DNA of 43,821 nt from Nemertoderma westbladi (lineage: Eukaryota; Animalia; Xenacoelomorpha), in assembly GCA_032718475.1 (NCBI GenBank), contig JAUCBJ010000081.1, forward strand, positions 1 through 43,821, written 5' to 3'. Positions 2,600 to 36,452 of this stretch are shown here, piece after piece. A model generated the notes under the pieces. It was not told the origin of the DNA, ran no database searches, and was given only the letters and a program-made list of their open reading frames with translations. The position numbers were made by a program, and so were the translations under genes. How positions within the stretch are numbered: the stretch's first letter is position 1; each line of letters starts with the position of its first letter.

Positions 2600-3163
2600 G
2601 ATACCTCTGAGTTCTTTGAAAACTTTGACAATCCAATTTTTTCAGATATTGATCCCAATACAAATTTATTGGATCCCTCCATTAGCGGGGCTATTTTGAT
2701 ATACAATCTTTTAAAAAAAAATTGGCAACGGAATCAAAATGCTCACCGTCTGATATTTCACTGTTTCAAATCAACTGTCGCAGCCTGTTTAAAAATTTTT
2801 CCAGCCTCAATGAAATTCTATCTGGTTTGAACTTGGCGTTCAGTTTTCTTGCTTTTGCCGAACCTTTCCTAAAAAAACGACAATAGTATGAATAATTTAG
2901 GTATCGATGGCTACGACCCACCAGTTGTTGATTTTAAAAAGGATAGCACGTCCGGCAGAGGGGGGGGGGGGGGGGGGGGCAGCAATATTAAACAGGGCAT
3001 AGCAGCAATTGAAAGACCCGACCTTAAATTAAACATAAAAGGGATTGAAAACACATGGGTGGAAATTCCAGACAAACATAAACCCAACCATTCCCTGATT
3101 GTTAGCTGCATTTATCGCCCTGGGTCATCCAACTACAACGATTTTGTCGAGGCTCTAGATCCT
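2600..3163 (+). pseudogene. CR1/L2-group LINE ORF2, start of the APE endonuclease (5' piece)
   Basis: Translates to DIDPNTN, SLFQINCRSLFKNF, RGGG, IENTWVEI, IVSCIYRPG; frameshifted; continues at 17601. Confidence 0.8.
3027..3163 (+). repeat. 137-bp target-site duplication of the RTE insertion (left copy)
   Basis: Matches 17601-17737 (AATTAAACATAAAAGGG...GGCTCTAGATCCT); the two copies flank the RTE exactly. Confidence 0.9.
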
Positions 3164-3201
3164 ACTACTACTACTACTACTACTAGGTCGAGCGAACTCG
3201 G
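3162..3201 (-). mobile_element. RTE LINE 3' end with (TAG)8 tail
   Basis: (CTA)8 at 3162-3185. Joining to 15027 across the CTCGG TSD restores the ORF end ...STVRVRST*, whose stop is the first TAG of the tail. Confidence 0.88.
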
Positions 3202-3748
3202 TGTGACGGGATCCAGATGAGATCCCGGTTTATCCATTTGTTAGTTCACTCGTCCCCGCCGTGTATGAAAGATAAAGGAGTTTGTGCTGTTCCTCGTATA
3301 TAATATTTGGGTATACAGATATAGATATAGGTATAGATATGAGATAATATGGTTGTTGTATACGGAAGGCGGGATACGGTAACTAAAGTCCCGGTCCTTC
3401 CCTAGCTAAACTATCTAACCTAAACTAGCACCAATATTGCACTGAGATAACTGAATTGATATGATTACTGCCAAGTGGCTATATTGCACGGTTGGCCTTG
3501 TTACTCTACCTAATCGATGCCTTTCCCCCCTCTGATTGGTTGATACCCTTGTTGGCGCCCTTTGGAGTGTTCCCGTTCACTCCACCTGTTCTCTCTGGGT
3601 TAGGGGTTTGGCCCCTGACCCTCGTTGTGTGTTTCCTTCCCATTCTTATTGGGATGGCACGAGTTGGTTAATTGCCCAATCTCGTGGCTCCCAATATTGC
3701 TTATCGGCTTAACTTTATGGGGTGTTAGCGGGATTGAATAAGCGAACA
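3202..3748 (-). repeat. 3' LTR of element A
   Basis: TGTGAC...GCGAACA; near-identical to 14473-15021; adjacent to the PPT. Confidence 0.95.
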
Positions 3749-3757
3749 CTCCCCCCC
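3749..3757 (-). other. Polypurine tract of element A
   Basis: Minus strand GGGGGGGAG immediately precedes the TGT of the 3' LTR. Confidence 0.85.
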
Positions 3758-4460
3758 ATGCTATCTTCCCGGTAAGAAGATAGCATCAACCAAAAAAGTG
3801 CGCTACAATCCCGCTGGATCCCGATCTAGTATCGGGTGTGGGGTGGAATTATTTTCTCTCAGAGCCGGCTTTCCAGGCCGCTCCCTATGGGTATGATAAC
3901 GCTACCCTGTGTGCCTGGCGTCTCATGTCGGGCCGATCGCGCTCACCTCTCACGCAACTTTTGTTTCCCCAACACTTCCGCCCTATCTCTTCTTCACTCT
4001 CATCCTAACTCTCTCATACACTCGGACCTCCTCGTCCCTCACTCAGCCTCTTATTCTCCCCCCCCCACACTAGAATTGCGTCCGCACTCTCTCTGCACTT
4101 CGCTCTATTACTCCGTCCCTCAACCCCACTTTGACTACCTCATTCCTCCTGACGAATCTCCCCCCCCCCTCTTGTGCCGTCGCACTCAAGAAGTGTGAAA
4201 TTGTCTGGTGTCTCGTCCATAGTGCCATAGTCAGTTATCCCCCAGTCCCAGTAGCTAATTGAGAAAGGTTGTATGACTATAGTACTTACTCCGAACGTAT
4301 ATATTTGTAGATTACTAATTACTACGTACGTACATACAAATTGCACTTATAGGATTATTTGCATTAATTAAATTTGTACTTAATAGTTCGTACGTCCCAC
4401 GCGGCGCCTTCCAGGCGCACCACGTCCAAGTCTCAGTTTCTCTCCCTCGGCTCTGGGAAC

Positions 4461-7008
4461 CTATCTGTTCCTCTGGGGATAGTTCCCCCTGGCATCCTCT
4501 TCCCTGGGTCGTTTCTTGGTTACCACCGTTCCTCTGGGATCCGCTTTCTGCTTTCGGACCTTTGCCGCCACCTCCCTGCTGATCCCGGTCGTTGGCTCCT
4601 TGGGCACTGGTGTTATTAGTGCCCGATATCGCTTCACCGGTGGCCCCTCAGAGTGGCCCGGTTGTCTCCCTCTGGTGGCGTCCCATAGGATCATCTTCAT
4701 TGCTTGTGGTACGTGCTCCGCCAAGAAATCCCTAAATTCCCTTCGGTTCTGTGGCGTCCATCTGTCCAAATATCTTTGCGTGTTCATCACTCCGGCGTAC
4801 GACGCCGCCGTTGCTACCTCTTGGTAGGTAAACGGTAGCCTCCGCTTTATGATTTCCATGTGAGTCTCCTGATTGATAAGGAAGAAACCCCACTTGAACT
4901 CCTGGGCCTTCATGCGCTGACGCGTCATGGCCCCGACGTCGGCCCACTCCTCGAATCTTGTGAACTTCTCCTCGTCATTCATCCAGTCGCACTCGCGTCC
5001 GTAGTGTCCCCGAAAGTGGCACTTTGGACATCGATTATGCAACCGTGGACACGCCCCCATCCTGTGGCTTGGCTCTCGGCAGTAGAGACAAAAAGGTTCC
5101 CTTCTGGAACCGGTACAAGCAGCTCCTTTCCTGGTGGGTCTGTCTCCCACAGTAGTTGCAGCCGAGTACCAATGTCTCCCGTCCCACCTCGTCTTTCGTC
5201 CCAAGCGATCTCCGCGGTCTGTGGAGTCGCTGGTAGGCGAACTTCTCCACGTTGGTGTCTCTATCTACGTCGATCTCTCCGCCCCTCTCGGGCATCGTCT
5301 CCCCGAATACTATCCATGGTGCCGTCCCCGGTTGCTCGCCCAACCTGATAGTGCTCCCCGCGAAATCCATCGCCGGCTCCTCGTGCACCCAGGTCCGCTT
5401 GCCGGATCTGTTCCAGAAGGCCCTCGCCCCACTGGCCATCACCACCCTTCCGCCAACCCAGTCCGTGTCCGAGTGGCCTATCCTCTCGATGGGCGGCATC
5501 TCTCCGAACTCGTCGTCGTCGTCCTCCTCTTTTGGCAGTGTCTCCAACCCTGGTATCCCGATGGATCCACTATGTCCCTTCCCGCCTTGGCTCTCGCCCG
5601 TAGCTCTCCATCCCTCTAACTCCCTTAACTTCCTTGGCGGTTGGTCGCCTTCGGCGCCCGCTGGTATGGGCATCGTTTGCAACCCCGACGTCGACTGTTT
5701 CGGTGATCCCACCGTCCATCCCAGTTCTCGCCCTAGAGACTCCCCCGAACTCCCTGATGAAGTCCAATGAAGTTCGTCTAGGCCTGCCTGTTCCTCGAAG
5801 CCGTAACTCTGTGTCCTGGCCTCCTCTTCCCTCTCCTCTGCTTCTATCCTCTCCCGTCTGGCGACTTCCTCTAGTCGCTTTGCTTCTCGTCTATCCGTCT
5901 CTAGCTGCTCCCATCTCTGATACGGCGTATCTGTCTCCCCGTCTACCAGATGTCGGCTGTTGTAGTACACCGACTCGCCCTTCAGCCCCGGGTGGTCTAC
6001 CAGACCGTCGAAGGCCGTCTTAAAGGCTCTCCTGTAGCTTAGGGGTGATCCCGATAACAGAAATGCCCCTGGTTCCCTCTCGATGACCACGGTCATAAAT
6101 AAGTTAAGCAAACTTATCATCATCCAATCTTCCTGCAGGATATATCGCTTCTGATATACCTTTATCGCTCCTCTGCAGAATTGATATACCTCTTGCTTTC
6201 CCGGTCTTGCTCCCCACTTTAGCGAGTTCGCTAGTTCTGCTCCGTATTCTTCCCTAAACTTCCCCCAATCCATCGGTTTGTGGCACACGAGCCCCAATAA
6301 TTGGCCCATTGCCACCGCCCCGCATTGGCCTGTGTTTTCGACTACCCCCAACCCATCCGGTGCCGTCATAGCCATAAAGACCTTCTGCATATCCAGGAGG
6401 TTGGTGGCGTCCGGACCGATGATTCTCTCCGCATCCTCGCGAATCGCCGATCCCACTTTCGTCGTCGACTTCTCTCTTACCAAGACTTGTACCGCTTTCG
6501 GTAACCGGTTTAATTTCGGCCCGTCCTTCTTCCCATACGTTCCTAGATCGAATAAGAAGATGTCCCCATTTGGCGCGGCCAAATGTAGGAGTATGGTCCT
6601 GGCCGACCCCGCCGTTCCTCGTCTCGAACCCGCCTCGTCTTCCACTGTTCCCTCGTCGTCTAGGATCATATATCCTCCTCTGTTGACGGACTCTATGAAT
6701 CTCTTCCAGTCCTTCCTCGGTGATTCCCTCGGGTACTTCGGAATCCCGAACTTCGCCTCGTCCCCTTTCACCACGTAGTGGAAGTGTTGGAAGATCGCGT
6801 TGTCCAGCGACGGCGTCCCGTAGGTCCCGACCAGCCGCTGTTCGTGCATCTCCCTGAAGTGATCCTGCAGCGCTCGCGCCGCGTGACCCCTTTCCAACCT
6901 CTCGTAGTATCCTCTCGTCTTCTCTTCTGGATGCCTCTCGGTGAAATCCACCAGTATCTCCTTTCCTCCTGACTCCGCCTTTCTCTTCCTGATCAACTTG
7001 CTCGCCAT
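4461..7008 (-). CDS. Accessory ORF3: DEDD(y)/DnaQ-like 3'-5' exonuclease, acidic linker and 3 CCHC zinc knuckles (one frameshift at about 5090-5094)
   Basis: YMILDDEG (ExoI), LLHLAAPNGDIFLFDL, LPKAVQVLVREKSTTKVGSAIREDAERI (ExoII), NLLDMQ, QKRYILQED (ExoIII-like); knuckles CNYCGRQTHQERSC, CLYCREPSHRMGAC, CPKCHFRGHYGREC. Copy B reads through the frameshift site in frame (QKGTSCLYC). ATG at 7008 is conserved in B (26196). Confidence 0.8.
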
Positions 7009-7494
7009 TCCGAACACTCACTCGCTCACCTGCAAGGGGGTGCCTTACCAAGGCGCAATACAGATGAGTGATGTATCTAGGATGTTCTGTACGGTTCGAT
7101 AATGGCCTATTTCTTACTTAACTGCGCCTTTTAACCTAAATTATTACTAATTAATTTTGAAGCTAGTAAATGAGCGTAATTTACGATTTCTGTCCGTTAC
7201 TTTTATTATGTTCTAGAATAACTTTCCTTGTGTTGCCATTATTTGTAACTTTCAGCCCTATTCTATTTATTCATCTATTTTAATTCTACTGTCCTACTAC
7301 TTACTATTACCTATGGATTATTCTATTCTCTAATCCACATTCTGGCCTACTCTGTGGGCCTATGCAGTACAGCAGTATGCGTCGTGTGGCCACACGATTT
7401 ACCCAGCTGTACTCATATGCCCCCCTCTCGCTACTAACTGCTAACTAATATCTATATCTTATATACCCCTTTTACCTCTTACTCTCTCTCTTCT

Positions 7495-8205
7495 AACTAA
7501 CGGTACTACGTACCCTCTAACTCTAATTCTAACTAACTAATGGTACTACGTACCCTCTAACTCTCCTCTAACTAACGGTACTACGTACCCTCTAACTCTT
7601 CTCTAACTAACGGTACTACGTACCCCCTAACTCTCTAACTAACTAGCGGTACTACGTACCCTCTAACTCTAACTAACTAGCGGTACTTACGTACCCTCTA
7701 ACTCTCTAACTAACTAACGGTACTTACGTACCCTCTAACTCTCTAACTAACTAACGGTACTTACGTACCCTCTAACTCTCTAACTAACTAGCGGTACTAC
7801 TTACCCTCTAACTCTAACTAACTAACGGTACTTACGTAACCTCTAACTCTAACTAACTAGCGGTACTTACGTACCCTCTAACTCTCTAACTAACTAGCGG
7901 TACTACGTACCCTCTAACTCTAACTAACTAGCGGTACTTACGTACCCTCTAACTCTAACTAACTAGCGGTACTTACGTACCCTCTAACTCTCTAACTAAC
8001 TAGCGGTACTACGTACCCTCTAACTCTAACTAACTAGCGGTACTTGCGTACCCTCTAACTCTCTAACTAACTAGCGATACTACGTACCCTCTAACTCTCT
8101 AACTAACTAGCGGTACTACGTACCCTCTAACTCTCTAACTAACTAGCGATACTACGTACCCTCTAACTCTCTAACTAACTAGGTACTACGTACCTCTTAA
8201 CTAAC
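7495..8205. repeat. Tandem array of about 20 units of 34-40 bp, each with a GGTAC-(T)TAC-GTACC mini-hairpin
   Basis: Unit approx CGGTACTACGTACCCTCTAACTCTCTAACTAACTAG, read directly from the sequence. Confidence 0.95.
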
Positions 8206-8394
8206 TTCTGCCTACTAACTGCGTACCTACTATGTACTTATTTATTTTATTTTATTTTCTATTTTTTTTGTGTGGGAAGGGCGTCTCGCCCTCAATCCCA
8301 CCCCCCTCAGTCCAAATCTTGGACGACTAAACTCTTCTCTAATTCCACTAAGGTGCTCCTTCTAGCAGACAGGTAACACCTCTGCCCGCACCTT

Positions 8395-11300
8395 TTACGG
8401 ATCTAACTCTTCCATCCCAGTCCAACCTGTTGGACAACTCAGCGACCCAAGGGGTGATTCCTCCAGCAGGCAACTCTCCCACTGCCCCCCTATAGGTTCT
8501 CTAATTCTTCGCTCCGCTCTCCTTGTCAATTCGATAGGTGGTCTTTTCTCCTGTTTTTGGAAATGCTGTCTGCTATTTATGTTTCTGATCTCGTGGTCGT
8601 CCCTTGGCGGCAAAGTGCCACCCTTCAACGTGTCACCCGGCGGTATAATGCCGCCCCTGTTCTTCTCCTTAATCTTAGATGCCACCTCTGCTGGCCTCCC
8701 CCTTAATATGTGTGCTGGCATTAAAGGCGTCCACGACCCCTGTTCGTCCTTCGGTATACACGGTCTCTGCCCATGTAATGCCCCTTCACACTCTGTCAGT
8801 CCCGCGTGCGTATGCAGCACGCCTCCTACTTTCCCGGATCCTTTGTCCATCACACGCACACCCACGGGCTTCTCTGCCCCTGGTCTGATCGTCTCAAGTC
8901 TTCTCCCTTTCCATTTAGTCCTCCTGCTCGGCCTCCCCCTTGTCGGCATGCCTCCCAACCGGACCGGCATCTCTTCCGGACACTTCTCCAGCCTGTCCCC
9001 TGGACATTTTGCCGTCCGCCCCTCTCCATCTCCATACCGATGCTTGCTGGGACTCTTGTTCCAGCCCATCGTCTCTAGATCTTCTGCATCCATGCCATTC
9101 TCCTCCGCCCACTCTCTTGGTGTTGCTTCCACTTCTAGCTGTCTACCACTATTGCCCATCTCTGGCCTCTCCTCTATCTCGTCGACAGTTCCTGGCACCA
9201 TGCATCCTGAACTCTCAGACACATGGAATGGTATATTACTCTTAATTGGGCCTGTCAGTGTCCACCCGAATGGTGTTAATATCGCCACCGGGTCACACTG
9301 CTTGTCTTTGCCGAAGACCGTTTGCATTCTTTCGTGGGCTGTTGGGCAGTCCATCCCTACTATGATGGATACCTTCCTAACGTCCACGTCTGGGATTGAG
9401 AAGTCAATGTCGTCCAGGAATTTATACTGCTCGACCTCGATGTTGGTTGGCCGCCTGGCATTGATATTAATTGACTCTATCACTTGGATGGGGTCGATGG
9501 TTGCCCCATAGTCGCATCCTGGTGCCACTGCTGCAATTGCGCACCGTCCTGTTCTCATCTCCAGGGTCTCATCTTTGCTAGAGATGGTTGTTACCGCCAT
9601 TCTGCTTGGTCTCGTTCTCAATCCTATCTCTTCGGCCACCCATTCCTCGACTAATGTGAAGGCAGCTACACTATCAACCAGCATTAGTGTTGTTACTGAT
9701 CGATTGCCTTCCCCAATCACTCGCACGGGTACTACTCCAAGTAACACCGTTCCTCTCTTCTTCGCCCCTACTGTGCTCGTCGCCATCGTTTGGCCTCTCC
9801 TCTGACCAAATTTTATCGGCTTCTCCTTGCACTCCCTTGCTCTATGTCCACTCATTACACATCGCGAGCAGATTTTGTTGCTCAACGCATAATCTATCTG
9901 ATCTTGCCTAGGTAGCGCCTGCCAGTACCTGCAGTTCATGGTTTGATGAAGCGCATTTGCGTGTAGCTGGCATTTGCTCTTTGGGTCGTAGCCCTCTTTA
10001 TACAGCGCATTGCGTATCGCAGTTGCGTTCGTACCAAAGTCCCTACTATTCTTATTGTTTGGATTCGGCCTAGTGGACATACTGGGGTTATGTTTATTCG
10101 TGTTGTTATTGTTTCCCTGTCCGTTCCATGGTGTTGTCTTATCCTCGGCTAGCTGTGGACTTGCAGTCCCCTGCGTCGCTGCATATGGCAATGATTGCCT
10201 GAGTCTCGGTAATGCGTTTGATGTATTGTGCTCTGGTTTCGGTCTATGGTAGTCTGTCTTCGGTCCCTTTCCCAGGCTATCTTCACTATAGACTGGGTCA
10301 GTTATTAGTTCAGCCTCGTAGTTTAAGAAGTTTGACATTTCTTCTAAACCCGGTTCCGCACCCTTCTTATCTCGAGTGGAGAAGGCGATTTTCCTCCACT
10401 TGTTGCGCAGCCAGTTTGGTAGTGCCTGCGCCATCGTGGTGATGTTGTTGGACGCGTTGAGCTCGTATGGCGCGTCTAGCGTCTTCAGCACGATCAGCGC
10501 CTTTTCTACTTTGTTAGCGAACGTTTTAATGCTAACGGGATTATCCTGTAGGCCACCCGATGTTATGCCTCTCAGCGTTTGCCTGATGATCTTGGCCAGG
10601 TGCCCGTATTCCCTATCCAGTGCCCGCCATGCTGTTGTGAAGCCGCCCTCTATTCCTTGATATTGCCTCACGATATCGTATGCTGGGCCTCCCGTGTATA
10701 CTTGCAGATACTTTAGGCACTCCGCCTGCATCAAGTTTTTTGTTAGTATTTCGTTACTATACATGCGCCGAAACTGTAGATATTCTTCCGGCCTGCTCCC
10801 ATCGAATTTGAATGGTTCCACGGGTGGTAGCTCGATCCTCGTTTTCAACGCATCGATCAACGTGGCCATCCCCATCGCCTGTGCTTCCAATGGGTTCGAC
10901 GGATGTTGTGTAGTTTCTCCTGTCTGGCACGGTTCGTCCGTCCTATTTCTTGACTTTCTCTGACTTGGGTATGTCATCGGGGGTAGCGGCCCCCTCCATA
11001 TATCTGTATCACACGACCTGTTCTCATCCAAGGGTCTCGTTGTTCTTGCTCCTATCGGGGTATATTGTTGATATTGTGATGGGGGAATGTCACCCTGTCC
11101 CCCCCCCCCCCCCCCCGCCGGTATGTTTGGTACTGGGGTTGATGTTAATATGTTGGGGCCCATACACCTATCCGCAATAATTCCCCCCTCCCCTGGGTAT
11201 ATGTTATGTCCCTGCATGCTGTAGTCATACTGCTGTACTGGTACCGGTATAGGCCTACCAGCTTCTGGCCTACCCGCCGGTATGTATTCCGCGACTTCCG

Positions 11301-11403
11301 GGTTTAATCCCGTTGCCCGCACTATCCTATCCCCTACATTGCCTCTCTCAGTATGGCCTATGGTATGTGCAGTAAGGCCTACAGTATGTCCTACAGTCTG
11401 CAT
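8395..11403 (-). CDS. gag: Element A Gag core (DUF1759-like, zinc knuckles), aspartic protease and vestigial Pol tail
   Basis: LPPVEPFKFDGSRPEEYLQF, AWRALDREYG, LPNWLRNKW, CQLH...HQTMNC, CSRCVMSGHRAREC, LMLVDSVAAFT (DSGA in copy B), IIVGMD, TPFGWTLTGP. Confidence 0.9.
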   Translation of the reverse strand: MQTVGHTVGLTAHTIGHTERGNVGDRIVRATGLNPEVAEYIPAGRPEAGRPIPVPVQQYDYSMQGHNIYPGEGGIIADRCMGPNILTSTPVPNIPAGGGGGGQGDIPPSQYQQYTPIGARTTRPLDENRSCDTDIWRGPLPPMTYPSQRKSRNRTDEPCQTGETTQHPSNPLEAQAMGMATLIDALKTRIELPPVEPFKFDGSRPEEYLQFRRMYSNEILTKNLMQAECLKYLQVYTGGPAYDIVRQYQGIEGGFTTAWRALDREYGHLAKIIRQTLRGITSGGLQDNPVSIKTFANKVEKALIVLKTLDAPYELNASNNITTMAQALPNWLRNKWRKIAFSTRDKKGAEPGLEEMSNFLNYEAELITDPVYSEDSLGKGPKTDYHRPKPEHNTSNALPRLRQSLPYAATQGTASPQLAEDKTTPWNGQGNNNNTNKHNPSMSTRPNPNNKNSRDFGTNATAIRNALYKEGYDPKSKCQLHANALHQTMNCRYWQALPRQDQIDYALSNKICSRCVMSGHRARECKEKPIKFGQRRGQTMATSTVGAKKRGTVLLGVVPVRVIGEGNRSVTTLMLVDSVAAFTLVEEWVAEEIGLRTRPSRMAVTTISSKDETLEMRTGRCAIAAVAPGCDYGATIDPIQVIESININARRPTNIEVEQYKFLDDIDFSIPDVDVRKVSIIVGMDCPTAHERMQTVFGKDKQCDPVAILTPFGWTLTGPIKSNIPFHVSESSGCMVPGTVDEIEERPEMGNSGRQLEVEATPREWAEENGMDAEDLETMGWNKSPSKHRYGDGEGRTAKCPGDRLEKCPEEMPVRLGGMPTRGRPSRRTKWKGRRLETIRPGAEKPVGVRVMDKGSGKVGGVLHTHAGLTECEGALHGQRPCIPKDEQGSWTPLMPAHILRGRPAEVASKIKEKNRGGIIPPGDTLKGGTLPPRDDHEIRNINSRQHFQKQEKRPPIELTRRAERRIREPIGGQWESCLLEESPLGSLSCPTGWTGMEELDP

Positions 11404-12860
11404 GTGTCGCTCGGGATCGAAGTTTATTCTTCTCGAATAATCCTCCCCGCGGCTACCGTATTCTCGATCGATAGGTGTATTCCGTTGGAAAGTTTCTCTT
11501 CGACCCCCCCTCTCTACTGTTCTCGTCTTCGTACCGGTATATCGCGTACCCCTCCATCGGCGCGTAATGCGCCTCGCCGGGTCGCATCTCTCCGGGGCGA
11601 CGGCAATCTCCCGGAGTCCGACCCCACTGATTCTCCGTTCTCATCTCAACTACCGACGGCTCGCTATCCGTCCTCGCTCTTCTATCGTTCGCGGCGATAC
11701 CTCTACTACTGTCTTCTCTTCTTCTCCTTTCAGTGGAGTATTCCCGCTCGTGAGATCTCTCGTCGACCTCCCGGTTAAACCCCACTGTTCTTTTTCCCTC
11801 TTCTGATCAGGCTCGACGCTTCGTCCGCCCTCTTACGACGTCAACCTGTCTCTCTCTGCTCGGTCGCACGCCGCTGGGGATACTCGCAATCCCCCTATTA
11901 CTTTCCGTCGCCGGTTGTTGCGGTTTACCAATTTCGGCCCGCGCATTATCCGCTGACGGCTGTGGGACACTCTCTGCCCCCCCCCCTTTCGCCGCTAACT
12001 CGCTGTTGTGGGGTTCTCGTAGCCCCCCCCACTCGCACATCTAACTTCGCTACTCCTCACCCCTCTACTATATCCCTCTCCAGTCGACACATCAACCCTA
12101 CCGCGGTCGGGTCTATTCACCCCCGCCTCTCCCTCTGCTATTGCGTGGCCTACCAGGCCCTCTACTCCCTGCCTACCAACTATGTGGCCTACCAGGCCCT
12201 CGCTGGGTCTATTCAACCCAGCCACTCCCTGCCTACCAACTACCTGGCCTACCAGGCCCTCGCTGGGTCTACCTAACCCAGCTACTCCCTGCCTACCAAC
12301 TGTGTGGCCTACCAGGCCCTCGCTGGGTCTATTCAACCCAGCCACTCCCTGCCTACCAACTACGTGACCTACCAGGCCCTCGCTGGGTCTACCTAACCCA
12401 GCTACTTCCGGCCCACCAACTGTACGACCTACCAGGTCCCCGTCTGTCTGGCTATACACGCCCGACGTGTTTACGTTAATAGCACTCATATTGGAAACGG
12501 AATTAATTTGTTCGTTCGAAATAAAATCATTTGAATTACTTTGCGCGACTACACTATCTGAATTATTTTGTAAATTCGGGCTCGGATCATTATTTAAATT
12601 ATTTGGATTATTTTGTGTAATTGCGTTACTTAAATTATTTTGTAGGTTCGAATTTGGGTTATTATTTTGATTATTTGGATTATTTTGTATAGCTGCATTA
12701 ATATTAGAATTATTTTCTACGTTAATATTAGGGTTGTTCTGATTTAAATTTAAATTACTATCACTAGGCAAAGTATTTCCTGCAATAAAGGTTTGATTAG
12801 AATTATCCCATACGGTACTATTAATATTAACCACGTCTACTGTACCATTATCATTATTAC
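11404..12860 (-). CDS. Element A Gag N-terminal extension: Asn-rich region plus 20-aa repeats (interrupted reading frame)
   Basis: Track ORFs 11995-13044, 11807-12040 and 11453-11785 are collinear with the single 631-aa ORF of copy B; breaks at a G run (about 11980) and near 11800. Confidence 0.75.
12145..12440. repeat. 60-bp coding tandem repeat (EGLVGHVVGRQGVAGLNRPS)n
   Basis: Period-60 pattern; the copy B array (about 32060-32420) has one more unit. Confidence 0.9.
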
Positions 12861-14407
12861 CCCCCCCCCCCCCCCCCCCCGCCCGCACGGTCACACCAGT
12901 TTTGGGTCTGTCGTGCGGTCCCCGCAAGTGGGGCATTAATAAATGTATCCACGGCCCCCGGCTCCTCAAAAATACTCGAGCCAGCCTCGCTCTCAGACGC
13001 CCCCATCTGCGCCAGTTCCACCTCACGCGTGTGTACAGCTTCATACTCTACGAGTTTGTCTCGCTGTTTCTCCAATTCTTTTCGCTCACGCTCCACTTTT
13101 GCTATTTTATCCATAGCCTCCCGTTCGCTCTGCTCGGCCAATTCCATCTCTCTCCTAATCCCCTCCCTTCGCCTCACCTCAAGCTCTCTACGCTCACTCT
13201 CCTCCCTCGCTTCACGCTCTCTGCGTTCACTTTCCTCCCTCGCCTCACGCTTCTCGCGTTCGCTTTTCTCTCTCGCCACACGCTCCTCTTGTTCCTTCAA
13301 CTCTATTTCATCATACTCCCTAAGGCTCCTCACGGCCCTTTCGGCCCTCTCTCTTGTCTCTCTAATCGACGCCATTTCCCTCTCTAGCAGCACTCTCCCT
13401 TCCTCTAGCCGTCTACCTACTTCTCTATTACCTTGCACTGCTAGATTGAGACGGTACCTAGCGTCTATCTCTCTCACCCGTCTTTCTTTCGCGGAGGATG
13501 TAGCAGACTTCTCGGTTGTGAAGGATTCCCTCCGCCTTCTCGATCTACTAACTTTCCCCCTCCTCCCGGAACTCCCTCCGACCGACGAGAACGAATCCGC
13601 GGGGTCAACCTCGGATTCGCCCTCCTCAGGTCTGTTCCAACCCACTAATTTTATACCCCGGGCATCGATTAAATATGGCCCTATGTACACTACACTAGGT
13701 TGTATACCCCCATGCCGCCATGAGTCATACAGTTCCTCGGCAACCCTTCTCGCTCTCTCCTCGGCCAATTCTCTCTGCCCGAAACGCATTAGATAGTATA
13801 AATGTCTGTCCGACTTACCTAGTCCTGACTTCAGTTTTACCTCGTCTATCGTTTTCCCCTTTCTGGCCTCCTCTAGTAGTCTCCGGGTCGCGTTGTAGGC
13901 CCGTCGAAGTCGATCAGAGACCCCGACGTCCTCGTCGCCGACCTCTCCTCCATCTCTCCGGGTTCGACGTCGTACCGGCGGCCCCACCGTCGCCGTTCCG
14001 GTGGGCCGTCCGTCGCCCTCGGCCTGTGCCTGGCCGGCGACATCGGTATCGACATCTCCGACGTCTCTCCGGGTCCGGCGTCGTACCGTCGGCCCCACCG
14101 TCGCCGTCTCGGTGGGCCGTTCGTCGCTCTCGGCCTGTGGCTGGCCCGCGACATCGGCACGTCGACCCTCGTTCCGTGTCGACTCGTCTCTTTCTCCCTC
14201 GAGCTCGTTCTCTCTATCCTCCGACTCGACTCCCCTTCCTCTTGACTCGGCTTCTGACTCCAGACGGCCCCCCTCATCTTGAATCTCCGGTTCGCCCGTT
14301 ACCGATGGCTCCGGCGTCGTGGGCCTGTATCGCCTGGTTGCGGCCTCGCGGATCGTTAGCTCTTCGTCCGGGGTCCGCGTCGGTGTTGTCTCACCCGACT
14401 GACTCAT
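12857..14407 (-). CDS. Element A ORF1: Glu/Arg-rich, probable coiled-coil protein, 516 aa
   Basis: ATG 66 bp after the 5' LTR; 37-aa internal duplication; long ER-rich helix; homologous to 32834-34330. Confidence 0.8.
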   Translation of the reverse strand: MSQSGETTPTRTPDEELTIREAATRRYRPTTPEPSVTGEPEIQDEGGRLESEAESRGRGVESEDRENELEGERDESTRNEGRRADVAGQPQAESDERPTETATVGPTVRRRTRRDVGDVDTDVAGQAQAEGDGRPTGTATVGPPVRRRTRRDGGEVGDEDVGVSDRLRRAYNATRRLLEEARKGKTIDEVKLKSGLGKSDRHLYYLMRFGQRELAEERARRVAEELYDSWRHGGIQPSVVYIGPYLIDARGIKLVGWNRPEEGESEVDPADSFSSVGGSSGRRGKVSRSRRRRESFTTEKSATSSAKERRVREIDARYRLNLAVQGNREVGRRLEEGRVLLEREMASIRETRERAERAVRSLREYDEIELKEQEERVAREKSEREKREAREESERREREAREESERRELEVRRREGIRREMELAEQSEREAMDKIAKVERERKELEKQRDKLVEYEAVHTREVELAQMGASESEAGSSIFEEPGAVDTFINAPLAGTARQTQNWCDRAGGGGGGGG

Positions 14408-14472
14408 CTCTCTTTATCTCTAGATTGGTCGCTGAGTTTAGTTAGCTAGGGCGGCAGCTCTGATTTAGTTAC

Positions 14473-15021
14473 TGTGACGGGATCCAGATGAGATCCCGGT
14501 TTATCCGTTTGTTAGTTCACTCGTCCCCGCCGTGTATGAAAGATAAAGGAGTTTGTGCTGTTCGTCGTATATAATATTTGGGTATACAGATATAGATATA
14601 GGTATAGATATGAGATAATATGGTTGTTGTATACGGAAGGCGGGATACGGTAACTAAAGTCCCGGTCCTTCCCTAGCTAAACTATCTAACCTAAACTAGC
14701 ACCAATATTGCACTGAGATTACTGAACTGATATGATTACTGCCAAGTGGCTATATTGCACGGTTGGCCTTGTTACTCTACCTAATCGATGCCTTTCCCCC
14801 CTCTGATTGGTTGATACCCTTGTTGGCGCCCTTTGGAGTGTTCCCGTTCACTCCACCTGTTCTCTCTGGGTTAGGGGTTTGGCCCCTGACCCTCATTGTG
14901 TGCTTCTCCTTCCCATTCTTATTGGGGTGGCACGAGTTGGTTGATTACCCAATCTCATGGCTCCCAATATTGCTTATCGGCTTAACTTTATGGGGTGTTA
15001 GCGGGATTGAATAAGCTAACA
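14473..15021 (-). repeat. 5' LTR of element A
   Basis: TGTGAC...GCTAACA followed by TSD CTCGG; minus strand has CCAATCAG and an Inr-like TCAGTT. Confidence 0.95.
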
Positions 15022-17600
15022 CTCGGACAGTGGAAATGAGATCCTTCCAGGCTTCCCGATTCTCCATAGTTGTCGCAATTTCGTTTCTCCCAAGTTCAGT
15101 ATCCCTTTCAAGTTGATCTATATATGTTATGGCCGGTCGTCCACGACTACGCTTTCCATGAGTTGGTTGCCAGAGAAGTAGATCTGGTATGACCTCGTCT
15201 TTACTTCGCCAGCAGTGCCCACTGAATCTTAATCTGCGTTCACGGAGGGTGGTTGATACAGGGTGGTATTGTACCATAAAGCTCGGCGTTTGTCATGTGT
15301 TGTCTCCAGCTGATGTTTAGGGCTGCCCTTAGTAGTCTTGTGTAGCAACCATCAATTCGTTGTTCAAGTGATTTAGTCAGTGTCCAGGTCTCACCCCCGT
15401 ATAAAAATACACTTTCCACTGTGGCTCGAAAGAACTTAGTCTTCAGGTGCCTGGAGAGATCTGATTTCCAGATGGTATCCATTTTTGATAGAGCTACCCA
15501 AGCCTTTGCTTTCCTAACTTCTATGTCCTTTTTGCTACTCTCTATCCATGATCCAAGGTACTGGAAGTCATCGACCTTCCTTAGTTGATTATTATCAATG
15601 GTTGTCAAGTTTCCATCAACATTAAAGGTCATGAATTCGGTCTTGGTAGCATTTATATGCAATCCAACCTCCTTAGCAGCCCTCTCCACTTTATTTAGTA
15701 GAAGCTGTGCATCTGCTAGCGTATTAGAGAGCAGGGCGATGTCATCCGCAAAGTCGGTGTCTGTGACTGTAGTTGCTGGATATCTACTACTTCTGCGTTC
15801 TTGAAGTGTGAATCCCAGATCTTCACCCTTTGTGGCCGTCCTCATTGCGTAATCCAGCACAATTACAAATAGTAATGGTGCTAATGTGTCACCTTGCAGT
15901 ACGCCAGCCAGGATTGAGAAAAACTCAGTTTCACCATCTGGTGAGAGTACCTGCGCTTCTGTGTCACAATATAACAATCCAATACCAGCAACAATTACTT
16001 CTGGTATTCCATAAGCTCTTATGATTTCAAGCATTTTACCTCTATGGATGGAGTCGAATGCCTTCTTGAAGTCCACAAAAGTCATGACTGCGGGGAGATT
16101 CTTTGACTTAATTCCTTCAATCATTCTCCGTAGTGCAAGTATCTGAGCTATTGTTGATCTACTTGGTCGAAATCCGTTTTGGCTCTTACGCAGTAGTTTC
16201 TCTATGTGAGGCCTAATCCTATATAGAATCATTTTATTGTATATTTTGGCAGCTACCACAAGCAGACAGATCCCACGATAGTTTGTTGGTATGCCGAGGT
16301 CTCCTTTCTTGGGGAGAGAGGCTTTAGTTGACCTTTAGTCCAAATTGGTGGTGGCTTTTCCCCTTTTAACATCCGGTTGCAAACATTCAATAATGGTCTA
16401 TTTAGCACTCCGGTTTTCCATACCTCTGCTGGGATTTCATCTAATCCACTCGCTTTATTATTGGACATGCTTTTAATGCTTCTTTGGAGTTCGGCAGGTG
16501 TGAAGTCCCCTGTTTCTATAGGTAGTGTCTTGTCATATATTTTCCTTGTAGGGCTGACCTCGATGTTTGGTGGGTGCCCAAGCAAGTTGCTGAAGTGATT
16601 TTTACACGTTCTTCAGGACTATCGGCTTTGAGGCGCCCCTTTGCACAACTTTTCCGACCAGATACCTCATTTACAGTTTGCCAGGTAAGTCTTGATTGTT
16701 GCTGTATGTGAGCAGTTGTAATTGCTTCAGTTTTATCCTGTATGTACTTTTCCTGGCTGATGTTGTAGGCCAATTTAAGATCGTCCTTAGCTTTCTCAAC
16801 CTTGTTAATGTTTTCGGTTGTTGGTTGTTCGGTTTTAACTTTGTAGGCTATCTTAAGATCTTCTCTCTTACAAGTAACCTCAGACTTTTGCCATGGCACA
16901 TACTGTTTTCGTTTAGGTTTCTGGGGGATATGCCTCTTAGCTGATTCCTTGTGGGCTGTTATTATATTCTGGTATATTGAATCGGTGGATTGGTCTTCAT
17001 CCATTGACTGAAGTGCTTCAAAGCGGTTTTGAACTTCTACTGTATAAGCATCCTTTACAGCATTGTCAGTTCTGAGTTTCTCCCAGTCATAGTTGATTTG
17101 CTTGCTTGTCCTGGGTTTGCTGGATCTCAAACTGAGTCTGATCTCTGCAGTCACAATTCTGTGGTCCGAACCAATTAGGTTGAACGAGCTGTATGCCTCG
17201 CAGTTGATCATGCCATTCCTCCACTTTTTGTTTATAAGGATGTAATCCAGTTATGCTTTGGTTCCATTAGGGTATTGAAAGGTCCATAGCTTCCCCTTAC
17301 TCTTTTCGAATGTGTTGTTTGTTGGTATCAATTCACATTCTTCCATTAGGTCTAAAAGTAAGTACCCATTTCTGTTAGAACTGGTGTTATAGGTGTAACC
17401 CTTGATGTCTTCTGGGCCAATTTGCGCATTCAGGTCACCAGCAATGACTTTAACATTGTGTTTCGGGATGTCCTTAATAAGTCCAGTCAGTTCTTCATAA
17501 AACTTGACTGCTTGTTCTGGCTCTGATGCATTGGTTGGACTGTAGCAACATATAACTGTTGTCTTGGGATTCCCATCAAATGTTGCGATCATAACCCTGG
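15022..17600 (-). mobile_element. RTE-clade LINE, 5'-truncated, APE-RT with several frameshifts and stops
   Basis: CYSPTN, IAGDLNAQIG, GSDHRIV, QNGFRPSRST, FVDFKKAFDSIHR, GVLQGDTLAP, DFADDIALL, FQYLGS, YGGETWTLT, RRLRFSGHCWR, RGRP. Confidence 0.92.
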
Positions 17601-25271: not shown

Positions 25272-26196
25272 CTACATCAAATCCTCAGTCCATCCCTCCT
25301 TGGCGTCCGTGGTGTCCCCGAAAGTTGCACTTCGGACATCGGTTCTGCAACCGTGGACACGCTCCCATCCTGTGGCTCGTCTCGTGGCAGTAGAGACAGC
25401 TGGTCCCTTTCTGGAACCGGTACAAGCAGCTCCTTTCCTGGTGGGTCTGTCTCCCACAGTAGCCGCAACCGAGTACCAATGTCTCCAATGTACCAATGTC
25501 TCCCGCCCCACGTCGTCTTTCATCCCAAGCGATCTCCGCGGTCTGTGGAGTCGCTGATAGGCGAACTTCTAGACGTTAGCGTCCCTGTCTACGTCGATCT
25601 CCTCGCCCCTCCCGGGCATCGTCTCTCCGAATACTACCCGTGGTGCCGTCCCCGGTTGCTTGCCCAACCTGATAGTGCTCCCCGCGAAATCCATCGCCGG
25701 CTCCTCGTGCACCCAGGCCCGCTTGCCGGGTTTGTCCCAGAAGGCTCTCGCCCCACTGGCCGTCACCACCCTCCCGCCAACCCAGTCCGTGTCCGAGTGG
25801 CCTATCCTCTCGATGGGCGGCATCTCTCCGAACTCGTCGTCGTCCTCGTCCTCCTCTCGCAGTGGTCCCAACCCCGGTATCCCGGTGGACCCACTATGTC
25901 CCTTCCCGCCTTGGCTCTCGCCCGTAGCTCTCCATCCCTCTAGCTCCCTTAACTTCCTTTGCGGTTGTTCGCCCTCGGCGCCCGCTGGTATGGGCATCGC
26001 TTGCAATCCCGACGTCGACTGTTTCGGTGATCCCACCGTCCACCCCAGTTCTTTCCCTAGAGACTCCCCCGAACTCCCTGACGAAGCCCAACGAAGTTCG
26101 TCTAAGGCTGCTTATTCCTCGAAGCCGTAGCTCTGCGCCCTAGCTTCCTCCTCCCTCTCCTCTGCTTCTCTCCTCTCTCACAAGTTTGCCTGCCAT
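25272..26196 (-). pseudogene. Element B ORF3 remnant (exonuclease and C-terminus deleted, knuckles kept)
   Basis: MAGKLVR jumps to the EEEAR..SYGFEE region; several stops; CGYC, CLYC and CPKC knuckle motifs present. Confidence 0.85.
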
Positions 26197-26629
26197 CTCG
26201 AACTCTGCCCGATCGCTCACCCGTAGGTGGTGCCTTGCCAAGGCGCAAACGTGATGAGTGATGGGTTTAGGTGGTTTAAGTTCAGTTCGATGGCCTATCT
26301 CTTTCTGAATTTCTGAGTTATTGCCTATTCTTACTACTGTTACCATAATTTGTTCCCCTTCTTAGCCCTATTCTTATTCTAATTTTTATTTTGATTTAAT
26401 TTCAATCCTACTACCTTACTGTTTCCTATTACTTGCTACTGCCTATGGATTATTCTATCTCCTAATCCACATTCTGGCCTACTCTGTGGGCCTGTGCAGT
26501 ACAGCAGTATATGTCGCGCGGCCTACACGATCTATCCAACTGTACTCATATGCCCCCCTCTCGCTACTAACTGCTAACTAATATCTATATCTTATATACC
26601 CCTTTTACCTCTTACTCTCTCTCTTCTAA

Positions 26630-27325: not shown

Positions 27326-27468
27326 TGCCTACTAACTGCGTACCTACTATGTACTTATTATTTTGTTTTCTATTTTTTTTCTATTTTTATGTGTGGGAAG
27401 GGCGTCTCGCCCTCAATCCCACCCCCCTCAGTCCAAATCTTGGACGACTAAACTCTTCCCTAACTCCA

Positions 27469-29320
27469 CTAAGGTGCTCCTTCTAGCAGACAGCATTTCC
27501 CTACAGCTCTCCTGTAGGTTTTTCTGTCCTTCGCACCTATCTTACCACCTATCCGCACTTCTACCGATCGGACTCTTCCGTCCTCGTCGGAATAAGTGCC
27601 TACAACTCTCGCCAACCGCCACTGGTTGTTGATGATAGTATCATCCGTAACGATTACGAGATCTCCTTCTCTTAACTCCCTATTTGGCTTCCTCCACTTA
27701 CTCCTTTTATGGAGTGTGGGTAGGTATTCCTCGACCCACCTCCTCCAATACTCTGCGCTTATTGCTTTAGCGACTTTCCAACTCTGGCGGGAGTGTATGT
27801 CATCTGGGTCTACACCCCGCATATCGATGGTCGCTGGCCTTTCCATCAGGAAATGGCTAGGCGTCAGCACGTCTAATGACTCAGGGTCATCATTCTCCGG
27901 GTATAGCGGTCTGCTATTAATGATCCCCTCGAACTTCGCAAGTACTGTCCGTAAGACGTCTTCAGTGACCATGTGGGTGTTCATCAGCTTCGTCATTAGA
28001 CGCTTTGAACTGCCCACCAGTCTCTCGACGCATCCTAGTTTATGTGGTGCATACGGCGTCCTTCTCTCCCACTTTACTTGTCGTCGTCTCATGGCCGCCC
28101 TGACTTCTTCTCCCTCCAAGATGTCCAAGGCCTCTGCCATCTCACTCTCTGCGCCCACAAAGTTGGTGCCGTTGTCGCTGTATATCATTGCAATCGTCCC
28201 ACCTTTGCGGTCTCTAAACCTTTCTAAGGCATTAATGAATGCTGATGCGGTTGCATCTTGGGCGAGTTCTATCCCCACCGCCCGTGTGTTGTTGCATACG
28301 AAGATAATGCCGTAGCGTTTCTCCGTGTGTCGCATCACTTTGATCTTTATCGGCCCGAACATGTCCACACCGCAATGCGTAAATGGCGGGTCGTGCTGTC
28401 TTACCCTACTCGCCGGTAGTGGCGCCATCTCCTGTACGGCTCGCTCCTTCTTCGCTCGTCGGCAAGTCTGGCACTGCCCCACTACCGCTTTTACCTTCTT
28501 CCTCAATTGTTTGACCCAATAGGTCCTCCTTATCTCTGTGAGGGTTCGGTTGGTGCCCCCATGCAATATCGACTTGTGGGAGTCCCAGATAATCTGGTGG
28601 ACTATTGGCGATCCTGTGGGAATGATGATGGGTTTCGGTGGTACGACTATGCTGTTGTTGTATCCCACCCTAGAATTCATTACTAGAATCCCGTCGTCAT
28701 TGAGTTGTGGCGACAGCGTAATCAGCTCGCTGTCCCGTCGGAGGTGCTGTTGGTTACCGACGCGTTCCACCTCGTCGCCATAGTTCTTCCGTTGTTCATA
28801 GCGGATGATTGCCTTAGCCACTCCTTCCAGATCTATGTATGTCTTGATCTTCTTTTCCTTGCCAACTCCCGCGAGGAAATTCCCGAAGGCTCTCCAGTAC
28901 GCCACTAGTTTCTTGGTCTTATACCAACTAGAACTGTAGCTGAGGAGTTTATCCATCGGGTTATCGCACAGTTCTCGTCTTGGTTGCACGTCCCTAATCT
29001 CCCTCACCATCTGGGAGTATATCTCTTCTCCCTCTGAATCTCCCTCTTCTCCCTCTGATACCACTTCTGAGCCCGGATCCACCTTTCTCATCGGCGGCCA
29101 GGCCTCCTTATCGCTCAGAAATCGTGGCCCATGCTGCCACAATACTTCCTTCTTCAAGAAAGTGTGGCGTTCCACGCCCCTCGATAGCAAGTCCGCTGGG
29201 TTCTCGTCTGTTGGGCAGTAGTGCCACCTTTCCAGTTCTGTGGTCGCCCTTATTTCGTCCACTCTATTTGAGACGAATATCGGGTATCTCGTCCTTTCGT
29301 TGTGTAGCCAACCAAGCACT
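27469..29320 (-). CDS. Element B RNase H C-terminus plus BEL/Pao integrase
   Basis: VLGWL..FVSNRVDEI, WHYCPTDENPADLLSRG, H..ILHGG...CQTC, GVDMFGP, IYSDNGTNFVGA, ERLVGSSKR, INSRPL, LTPSHFL, GRVRSVEV. Confidence 0.93.
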
Positions 29321-32300
29321 ATCAATGTCGTCCAGGAATTTATACTGCTCGACCTCGATGTTGGTTGGCCGCCTGGCATTGATATTAATTGACTCTATCA
29401 CTTGGATGGGGTCGATGGTTGCCCCATAGTCGCATCCCGGTGCCACTGCTGCAATTGCGCACCGTCCTGTTCTCATCTCCAGGATCTCATCTCTGCTAGA
29501 GATGGTTGTTACCGCCATTCCGCTTGGCCTCGTTCTCAATCCTATCTCTTCGGCCACCCATTCCTCGACTAATGTGAAGGCAGCTCCACTGTCAACCAGC
29601 ATTAGTGTTGTTACTGATCGATTGCCTTCCCCAATCACTCGTACGGGTACTACTCCAAGTAACACCGTTCCTCTCTTCTTCGCCCCTACTGTGCTCGTTG
29701 CCATCGTTTGGCCTCTCCTCTGACCGAACTTTACCGGCTTCTCTTTGCATTCCCTAGCTCTATGTCCACTCATCACACACCGTGAGCAGATTTTATTGCT
29801 CAACGCGTAATCTATCTGATCTTGCCTAGGTAGCGCCTGCCAGTACCTGCAGTTCATGGTTTGATGAAGCGCATTTGCGTGTAGCTGGCATTTGCTCTTT
29901 GGGTCGTAGCCCTCCTTATACAGCGCATTGCGTATCGCAGTTGCGTTTGTACCAAAGTCCCTACTATTCTTATTGTTTGGATTCGGCCTACTGGACGTAC
30001 TGGGGTTATATTTATTTGTGTTGTTATTGTTCCCCTGTCCGTTCCATGGTGTGATCTCATCTTCGGCTAGCTGTGGACTTGCAGTCCCCTGCGTCGCTGC
30101 GTATGGCAATGATTGCCTGAGCCTCGGTAATGCGTTTGATGTATTGTGCTCTGGCTTCGGTCTATGGTAATCCGTCTTCGGTCCCTTTCCCAGGCTATCT
30201 TCGCTATAGACTGGGTCAGTTATTAGTTCAGCCTCGTAGTTTAAGAAGCTTGACATTTCTTCTAAACCCGGTTCCGCACCCTTCCTATCTCGAGTGGAGA
30301 AAGCGATTTTCCTCCACTTGTTGCGCAGCCAGTTCGGTAGTGCCTGCGCTATCGTTGTGATGTTGTTGGACGCGTTGAGCTCGTATGGCGCGTCTAGCGT
30401 CTTCAGCACGATTAGCGCCTTTTCAACTTTGTTAGCAAATGTCTTAATGCTAACGGGATTATCCTGTAGGCCACCCGATGTTATGCCCCTCAGTGTCTGT
30501 CTGATGATCTTGGCCGGGTGCCCGTATTCCCTGTCCAGTGCCCGCCATGCTGTCGTGAAGCCGCCCTCTATTCCTTGATATTGCCTCACGATATCGTATG
30601 CTGGGCCTCCCGTGTATACTTGCAGATACTTTAGGCACTCCGCCTGCGTCAAGTTCTTTGTTAGTATTTCGTTACTATACATGCGCCGAAACTGTAAATA
30701 TTCTTCCGGCCTACTCCCATCGAATTTGAATGGTTCCACGGGTGGTAACTCGATCCTCGTTTTCAACGCATCGATCAACGTGGCCATCCCCATCGCCTGC
30801 GCTTCCAATGGATTCGATGGGTGCTGCATAGTTTCTCCTGTCTGGTGCGGTTCGTCCGTCCTATTTCTTGACTTTCTTTGACTTGGGTATGTCATCGGGG
30901 GTAGCGGCCCCCTCCATATTTCTGTGTCACACGACCTATTCTCATCCAAGGGTCTCGTTGTTCTTGCTCCTATCGGGGTATATTGTTGATATTGTGATGG
31001 GGGAATGTCACCCTGTCCCCCCCCCCCCCCACCGGTATGTTTGGTACTGGGGTTGATGTTAATATATTGGGGCCCATACACCTATCCGCAATAATTCCCC
31101 CCTCCCCTGGGTATATGTTATGTCCCTGCATGCTGTAGTCATACTGCTGTACTGGTACCGGTATAGGCCTATCAGCTTCTGGCCTACTCGCCGGTATGTA
31201 TTCCGCGACTTCCGGGTTTAATCCCGTTGTCCACGCTATCCTATCGCCTACATTGCCTCTCTCAGTATGGCCTATGGTATGTGCAGTAAGGCCTACAGTA
31301 TGTCCTACAGTCTGCATGTGTCGCTCGGGATCGAAGTTTATTCTTCTCGAATAGTCCTCCCCGCGGCTACCGTATTCTCGATCGGTAGGTATATTCCGTC
31401 GGAAAGTTTCTCTTCGACCCCCCTCTCTACTGTTCTCATCTTCGTACCGGTACATCGCGTACCCCTCTCTCGGCGCGTAGTGCGCCTCGCCGGGTCGCAT
31501 CTCTCCGGAGCGACGGCAATCTCCCGGAGTCCGACCCCACTGACTCTCTGTTCTCATCTCGACTACCGACGGCTCGCTATCCATCCTCGCTCTTCTATCG
31601 TTCGCGGCGATACTTCTACTACTGTCTTCTCTTCTTCTCCTTTCAGTGGAGTATTCCCGCTCGTGAGATCTCTCGTCGACCTCCCGGGTAAATCCCACTG
31701 TTCTTCTTCCCTCTTCTGATCGGGCTCGACGCTTCGTCCGCCCTCTCACGACGTCAACCTCTCTCTCTATGCTCGGTCGCACCCCGCTGGGGATACTCGC
31801 AATCCCCCTATTACTCTCCGTCGCCGGGTGTTGCGGTTTACCTATTTCGGCCCGCGCATTATCCGCTGACGGCTGTGGGACACTCTCTGCCCCCCCCCCC
31901 TTTTCGCCGCTAACTCGCTGTTGTGGGGCCCCTGTAGCCCCCCCCCACTCGCCACGTCTAACTTCGCTATCCCTCACCCCGCTACTATATCCCTCTCTAG
32001 TCGACACATCAACCCTACCGCGGTCGGGTCTATTCACCCCCGCCTCTCCCTCTGCTATTGCGTGGCCTACCAGGCCTTCTGCTCCCTGCCTACCAGTTAT
32101 GTGGCCTACCAGGCCCTCGCTGGGTCTATCCAACCCAGCCACTCCCTGCCTACCAACTACGTGGCCTACCAGGCCCTCGCCGGGTCTACCTAACCCAGCT
32201 ACTCCCTGCCTACCAACTATGTGGCCTACCAGGCCATCGCTGGGTCTATTCAACCCAGCCACTCCCTGCCTACCAACTACGTGGCCTACCAGGCCCTCGC

Positions 32301-34330: not shown

Positions 34331-34436
34331 CTTCTTTACCTCTAGATTGGTGGCTGGTAGTCGCTGTTTATCTAGGGCGGCAGCTGGTTTTAGTTACTGT
34401 TACAGTTTAACTAGGGCGGCAGCTCGATTTAGTTAC

Positions 34437-36450: not shown

Positions 36451-36452
36451 AA

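Follow-up and report, generated by a model that had tools for sequence, protein, structure and literature searches.

A minus-strand BEL/Pao retrotransposon in the genome of Nemertoderma westbladi carries a third open reading frame (ORF3) whose predicted product joins a DEDDy-type 3'-5' exonuclease domain to three CCHC knuckles. The window that we analysed is a 43,821-nucleotide (nt) stretch of contig JAUCBJ010000081.1 (assembly GCA_032718475.1), numbered along the forward strand, and it contains two related minus-strand long terminal repeat (LTR) elements, copy 1 and copy 2. ORF3 lies between the end of pol and the polypurine tract (PPT) and 3' LTR of copy 1. It comprises approximately 846 codons over two frames, so an initial annotation of the sequence, which had described an ORF of about 850 amino acids (aa) in this position, is upheld. 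Profiles, alignments and an alignment-guided model make it very probable that aa 95-310 adopt the DEDDy fold, with D117, E119, D192, Y289 and E293 as the metal site. The domain is probably also catalytically active, given the Glu at ExoIII. We see close to an even chance that the protein is the BEL/Pao lineage's own exonuclease-knuckle enzyme, convergent with trypanosome RNase D (TbRND), that either destroys piRNA-type RNAs or matures a tRNA-independent self-primer. The complete chain that we favour, in which a selected ORF3 encodes an RNA-binding 3'-5' exonuclease with knuckles that counters small-RNA silencing, is put forward tentatively.

An exonuclease-like domain in the ORF3 product

The exonuclease-like domain is unbroken in copy 1. 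The initial annotation had recognised it by a succession of motifs, all of which are found in the sequence between aa 115 and 286: ILDDEG (aa 115), LHLA (141), IFLFDL (150), LPKAV (169) and KVG (184), followed by IRED (189), LLDM (204) and QKRYILQED (286). The predicted catalytic set consists of D117 and E119 (ExoI), D192 (ExoII), and Y289 with E293 (ExoIII).

We compared ORF3 with DEDDy domains taken as natural sequences from bacterial genomes, using profiles of 28 and 98 domains. Against aa 91-345, the local profiles scored approximately 10 bits (E about 2e-5 per single comparison), which none of 1000 shuffles attained. The match is centred on a strand-strand-helix-KVG-D segment, and D192 falls within the best-scoring local segment. 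The glocal version of the 98-domain profile gave a z score of 5.5, reached by none of the 2,081 controls (1500 shuffles, 500 shuffles in five-residue blocks and 81 windows from other ORFs). An unguided MAFFT alignment of 48 domains plus ORF3 (49 rows) placed D117, E119, D192, Q286 and Y289 on five invariant columns, which include the ExoI DxE pair and the ExoII Asp. E293 sits in the column of the ExoIII Asp, and the Trp that follows it is in register. All five catalytic columns were filled in 7 of 1140 shuffles.

When an alignment of exonucleases was supplied as input, AlphaFold returned a model with a predicted local distance difference test score (pLDDT) of 74, a predicted template modelling score of 0.76 and core pLDDT values above 85-90. 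This guided model matches RICE1, Nibbler, TbRND, EXD2, RNase D, WRN and Egalitarian with Z scores of 13-14 and a root-mean-square deviation of about 3 over 156-184 residues; because the input consisted of exonucleases, the model is circular and speaks for compatibility only. TbRND, which was outside the input alignment, gave the longest alignment (184 residues) and the highest identity (20%) in the VIA list of fold matches. Even the poor model predicted from the single sequence shows the helix-strand-strand-strand start of the DEDDy fold.

In addition to this circularity, a number of results weigh against the assignment. The single-sequence model had a pLDDT of 38 and no DnaQ fold hit, so the structural check proposed in the initial annotation (AlphaFold with a fold search) did not yield an independent match. 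Six narrower profiles gave z scores of only 2.2-3.8, matched by between 1 and 36 of 1500 shuffles, and under a more lenient criterion, with 10 of 17 conserved columns required, 13 of 868 shuffles but none of 46 real windows passed. The local E value of 2e-5 is not robust to correction over all Pfam families, and hhalign against eight sequences returned a probability of 12.8%. Searches of Pfam, NCBIfam and PHROGs gave no significant match for either ORF3 frame, knuckles included; the curated cut-off of PF01612 was not reached, our own profiles scoring about 10 bits. No ORF3 homologue was recovered by a word-indexed search of 5.8 billion sequences with aa 20-360 (among candidates of 361-1150 aa only) or by phmmer with aa 1-349 against 1.84 billion representatives, and PDB sequences held no match at E 10. 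Metagenome, viral contig and phage genome searches likewise gave no relatives. Finally, the canonical ExoIII YxxxD is not matched: ORF3 has Y289xxxE293 with an Asp at +5, whereas the reference domains have Asp in 48 of 48 cases. This is the atypical ExoIII that the initial annotation had pointed out, and because Glu replaces Asp there, activity may be low or absent. Overall, the match of aa 95-310 to RNase D/WRN/EXD-type profiles is weak, yet above every control.

The ORF3 frame and its conservation between copies

ORF3 begins at an ATG at 7008 in strong context, and its main frame stops at 5035; the second frame spans 4461-5264. In copy 1 the frame is broken at an A run, with 638 codons before the break and 208 after it, and knuckles 2 and 3 lie beyond the break. 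All three CX2CX4HX4C knuckles of the initial annotation are present (Table 1), separated from the exonuclease-like domain by a charged spacer of roughly 300 residues. In copy 2, knuckles 1 and 2 are read in a single frame and so are parts of the same protein in this family. Neither ORF3 frame contains a transmembrane or hydrophobic fusion segment as judged by 19-residue hydropathy, the maximum being 1.3 in the main frame and 0.36 in the second. An identity as env was considered and rejected for lack of such a hydrophobic segment.

The copy 2 remnant of ORF3 aligns to copy 1 only at 4995-5853, 6998-7121 (the start region) and 4034-4437. It has frame breaks and stops of its own, and the whole exonuclease domain is gone. 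The initial annotation had argued from this remnant that the exonuclease belongs to the family as a whole; a sister remnant does exist, but taken alone it does not establish this. Public sequencing runs supply this evidence instead. The stretch is partly present in five of the six runs listed, which come from three studies and one of which may be the source of the assembly. No RNA run containing the stretch was among those listed, which has no bearing on expression. In four runs, 18,995, 8,008, 8,925 and 160 contigs of several identity classes were placed on 3200-9500, covering 30 of 30 bins in three runs and 27 of 30 in the fourth. Therefore, the exonuclease region occurs in many diverged copies. 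Contig depth seemed roughly tenfold lower across the pol remnant (8475-9107) than across ORF3; we draw nothing from this difference, as depth of contigs is no guide to the ranking of parts.

Purifying selection on ORF3 is supported by an excess of silent changes among the listed copy variants and by the ratio of replacement to silent substitution rates (dN/dS) between copies 1 and 2. The variant test used 31 ORF3 variants among 40 listed rows out of 839; these rows do not reach ExoI or ExoII, which limits what the test says of the catalytic site and counts against our reading. Between 6085 and 6250, 11 of the 13 listed variants are silent, compared with at most 33% expected (p 2e-4). The two replacement variants there affect a single codon, and the E293 codon varies silently. 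Over the whole of ORF3, 20 of the 31 listed variants are silent, and only 5 of the 11 in the knuckle and tail region. Between copies 1 and 2, dN/dS was 0.32 over the spacer (5170-5853) and 0.15 over 5095-5169. The initial annotation had taken survival of ORF3 in a copy that has lost reverse transcriptase (RT) and integrase as a hint of selection. Selection is borne out by the silent excess between copies; survival in copy 1 as its proof was rejected, since this insertion is young, its LTRs mismatching at 11 of 547 columns, and its ORF3 is frame-broken.

We also surveyed 81 distant BEL/Pao loci, 30 of them with at least 1.5 kb of downstream sequence, which together contained 134 ORFs of at least 100 aa. 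A tblastn search at E 0.01 recovered no ORF3 relative from any of these loci, and none of their ORFs proved DEDDy-like (best E 0.55). Where a repeat pair was present, the end of pol lay less than 1 kb from the downstream repeat in 24 of 25 cases. The gene is lineage-restricted by this survey, whose 81 loci, at just 24-41% integrase identity, are all distant ones rather than close relatives.

Anatomy of the element and its neighbourhood

Copy 1 occupies 3202-15021 on the minus strand and has TG...CA LTRs, a PPT and a 5-bp target-site duplication (TSD). Its LTRs agree in 536 of 547 aligned columns, with 11 mismatches (98%). Copy 1 is a young, non-autonomous BEL/Pao insertion. These termini, the DUF1759-protease ORF and the DUF5641 integrase of the family agree with the BEL/Pao classification made initially. 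DUF1759 was detected in the copy 1 Gag with E 1.8e-9 (Pfam), followed by an Asp_protease_2 match below the cut-off (E 0.0028). A triple Cys-His box in Gag is described, in the available part of PMC554778, as a BEL/Pao trait not present in Tas; inspection of the copy 1 Gag translation by eye revealed one canonical and one degenerate box, and a third was not seen. RT and the integrase core were not found in copy 1. Its pol remnant at 8395-9240 is open and in-frame, though highly degenerate, with traces of integrase C-terminal motifs below significance. The remnant suggests an old non-autonomous Gag-protease-ORF3 lineage that is still mobile, its LTRs being 98% identical.

Table 1. Features of the two related elements in the window (forward-strand coordinates; aa numbering from the ORF3 start)
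Feature	Coordinates	Strand	Basis or remark
Target-site duplication, 5 bp	3197..3201, partner 15022-15026		same 5 bases beside both LTRs
3' LTR, copy 1 (TG...CA)	3202..3748	-	536/547 columns shared with 5' LTR
Polypurine tract	3749..3757	-	G-run adjoining 3' LTR
C-terminal portion of ORF3, read in the second frame, with knuckles 2 and 3, a helical region and a basic tail	4461..5090	-	
CCHC knuckle 3	4989..5030	-	CX2CX4HX4C motif
Main frame of ORF3 (657 aa), with the N-terminal region, the exonuclease-like domain, a charged spacer and knuckle 1	5035..7008	-	
CCHC knuckle 2	5049..5090	-	CX2CX4HX4C motif
Frame break, copy 1	5090..5094	-	A run; knuckles 1 and 2 in different frames here, one frame in sister copy
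CCHC knuckle 1	5119..5160	-	CX2CX4HX4C motif
Predicted DEDDy-fold 3'-5' exonuclease domain, aa 95-310	6079..6726	-	profiles and alignment; alignment-guided model
Candidate splice acceptor (pyrimidine run and CAG), 21 nt upstream of ATG	7030..7040	-	sequence inspection
Tandem array, ~36-nt units	7486..8202; copy 2 counterpart 26608-27323		between pol and ORF3
Gag (DUF1759)-protease ORF, degenerate pol remnant at end	8395..11640	-	
Primer-site position: no TGG/tRNA-type site; 9-nt and 10-nt blocks complementary to LTR	14442..14472	-	
5' LTR, copy 1	14473..15021	-	
LTR-internal partner of primer-site region (candidate self-primer)	14650..14680	-	
ORF3 remnant, copy 2, with the exonuclease domain deleted: start region fused to the spacer and knuckles, two stops in frame	25303..26309	-	
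RNase H end-integrase-DUF5641, copy 2	27469..29394	-	Pfam; composition

Upstream of DUF1759, both copies have a charged coiled-coil-like ORF, for which Pfam gave no match, and an Asn-rich ORF built of 60-nt repeats (12857-14413 and 11995-13047; copy 2 region 30970-34393). A perfect-looking palindromic hairpin is located at 3759-3787, directly upstream of the PPT. Each unit of the tandem arrays (7486-8202 and 26608-27323) carries a 5-bp hairpin, and the arrays could possibly be an RNA signal or an enhancer for ORF3.

Copy 2 extends from about 24890 to 34977 on the minus strand. It has neither RT nor a 3' LTR, but retains an integrase with DUF5641 (E 3e-24) and Integrase_H2C2 (Pfam). This integrase had 449 matches, the best relatives being Pao-type pol sequences with up to 36-39% identity. 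Copy 2 is nested inside a third, unrelated BEL element (34978-40794 and 24359-24898), in which Gag, RT and a pol piece can be discerned. Pol homology is nearly continuous across the junction between the integrase (27469-29394) and this host element. We considered and rejected the integrase as part of the host element, since its composition (GC 0.52, purine 0.61) places it with the ORF3 family rather than with the host (GC 0.45, purine 0.54); the piece at 24434-24886 groups with the host by the same measure. The copy 2 integrase is thus assigned to the copy 1 family by continuity and composition. Identity between the copies (9404-15021 versus 29322-34977) is 95-96% in gag-protease and 76-87% in the upstream ORF; it is 89% in the LTR and ORF3 spacer and 73% at the ORF3 start. 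Because it is so uneven, recombination among subfamilies is suggested.

Elsewhere in the window, minus-strand fragments of a LINE-like (non-LTR) RT and endonuclease lie at 15240-17250, the segments 3027-3163 and 17601-17737 are identical, and an unclassified repeat of ~900 bp occurs at 20388-21284 and 42925-43821 (98% identical). Rfam and ARAGORN found nothing relevant.

Possible roles of ORF3 and known counterparts

Mut-7/Nibbler and EXD1 have roles in small-RNA and piRNA pathways, and to our knowledge few counter-measures to small-RNA silencing are encoded by animal transposons. In the explanation that we favour, the ORF3 protein would be expressed from a spliced or subgenomic RNA, its three CCHC knuckles would tether single-stranded RNA, and the DEDDy domain would strip nucleotides from free 3' ends through two-metal catalysis, the way trypanosome RNase D works. 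Host small RNA would be the target: unprotected silencing RNAs or their precursors would be degraded or over-trimmed, thereby shielding the element. We prefer this explanation because overexpression of TbRND, the one known exonuclease-CCHC protein, depletes guide RNAs, and because its full activity requires the fingers, which raise RNA binding and cleavage (PMC7797062, available part). Moreover, the rotifer DEDDy ORFs are common to elements with unlike replication (PMC5408684); they occur in both LTR and Penelope-like elements, so their job would not be tied to LTR priming. Two points count against a silencing role. Rodriguez et al. describe, in the accessible portion of PMC5408684, no clear tie between DEDDy ORF3s and copy number, and the present results do not discriminate between candidate RNA targets.

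The ORF3 enzyme may instead trim a self-primer, because a tRNA primer site is absent and the leader pairs with the LTR. Here, RNA of the element would prime RT, and the exonuclease would trim the 3' end of the primer to the paired stem beside the LTR. Neither copy has a TGG-type primer site, and in both the first 9 nt past the 5' LTR are exactly complementary to the LTR (14658-14650 in copy 1); a second complementary block of 10 nt follows 12 nt further in the same register. The copy 2 counterpart lies at about 34405-34436 with about 34605-34635, where the leader unit is duplicated. An anchored 9-mer complement arose in 9-10 of 2000 shuffled LTRs, the energy of the leader-LTR duplex was reached by 2 of 300 and 0 of 300 shuffles, and the fold of the region has a z score of -2.74. 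In addition, a repeat pair is present in 25 of the distant BEL/Pao loci, none of which has ORF3, and at least 7 of these 25 show a TGG-type site. On sequence grounds the pairing suggests self-priming in a BEL/Pao element. However, in known self-priming (Tf1) the cut is made by RNase H, and the minimum-energy fold pairs only the second block, the 9-nt segment taking another partner. Two distant loci (L216 and L262) lack an adjacent TGG, yet have no room for ORF3. The anchored match of 9 bp is also one base short of the 10-bp rule given in the available text of PMC6317226. Primer trimming by ORF3 is accordingly an unlikely role, ranking just behind the adaptor role considered below.

A dead or weak DEDD domain could also serve as an RNA-binding adaptor, resembling Egalitarian or EXD1 or playing a CERV-like part, that helps to export, localise or package the RNA of the element. 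The exchange of Asp for Glu at ExoIII fits such a protein, as do the three knuckles and the basic stretches at both ends of ORF3, which resemble nuclear localisation signals in sequence. In the fold-match lists, Egalitarian and Exd1 rank level with active enzymes, and CERV, likewise an ORF in the env position, drives export of genomic RNA (PMC10309623, available part). Yet all four metal positions are acidic, the Tyr is retained, and among the listed variants a silent change leaves E293 in place in other copies. We therefore consider the adaptor unlikely, although it is the foremost of the alternatives. A DNA-acting exonuclease of the WRN/PolA kind, which would proofread or trim cDNA ends, draws on WRN and polymerase exonuclease domains, which tie for the top of the VIA list, and on glocal WRN-like profiles, which outscore a five-sequence RNase D-like profile. 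The VIA ranking mirrors the input alignment, the CCHC knuckles and the TbRND parallel favour RNA, and the gene is retained in a copy without RT or integrase, making this the least probable reading. The remaining alternative is that the domain is not an exonuclease and that, in an orphan protein that binds nucleic acid, the motifs stand in this order by chance. The hypothesis was chosen by eye ahead of testing, no library contains a hit, the hhalign probability is low and the unguided model failed. Chance is nevertheless improbable, since the whole-domain glocal score beats every control, the five invariant columns are in register and the core of the guided model is predicted with high pLDDT.

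Should ORF3 degrade small RNAs, it would represent an anti-silencing factor of a new kind; should it trim a self-primer, it would open a new route to tRNA-free priming. The nearest precedent, correctly named in the initial annotation, is in bdelloid rotifers, where the LTR elements Juno and Vesta and the Terminons carry a DEDDy ORF3 of which the function was untested in 2017 (PMC5408684, here and below as far as its available text goes). Like these, the nemertodermatid gene is a separate ORF downstream of pol, in the env position, and encodes a DEDDy domain of the RNase D type in which the acidic set is altered, and no transmembrane segment. Unlike them, it resides in a BEL/Pao element (DUF1759, DUF5641), has the motif D-E-D-E rather than the rotifer DEED, and encodes ~846 aa with three CX2CX4HX4C knuckles, where the rotifer text mentions only a Cys-His-Cys motif in two. 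Variation here also shows purifying selection.

TbRND (PMC7797062; PDB 7c42/7c45), as described in the available part of that report, also carries tandem CCHC fingers after an exonuclease domain, which is N-terminal and of the DEDD type, a likeness seen in ORF3 at the level of motifs. It is a cellular, mitochondrial enzyme whose DEDD set is intact and whose four fingers sit on a short linker, in contrast to the three knuckles of ORF3 after a charged spacer of ~300 residues; identity is 20% over 184 residues in the guided model, and the resemblance is likely due to convergence. ORF3 shares with WRN, EXD2, Mut-7 (Nibbler), EXD1 and Egalitarian (the PF01612 group) the order LQL..., LP..L..L...I.K.G..I..D, ..DL, Q..Y, but differs by its 10-20% identity, a score below the Pfam cut-off, insertions between motifs and the Glu at ExoIII, and its nearest subfamily cannot be named. 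In contrast to the env-bearing BEL/Pao elements Tas, Cer7 and roo, it lacks a hydrophobic membrane segment and so is not a fusogen, and CERV of Cer1 resides in a Gypsy element. Our literature search, which covered neither most subscription journals nor Repbase, found no report of a BEL/Pao exonuclease ORF, and the word "exonuclease" does not occur in the available parts of PMC3118150 and PMC13524379. ORF3 is seemingly an independent capture in a different superfamily from the rotifer ORF3s. What is new here is the BEL/Pao superfamily as carrier, the combination of exonuclease and knuckles, and the D-E-D-E site, for a concept that has its precedent in the rotifer elements.

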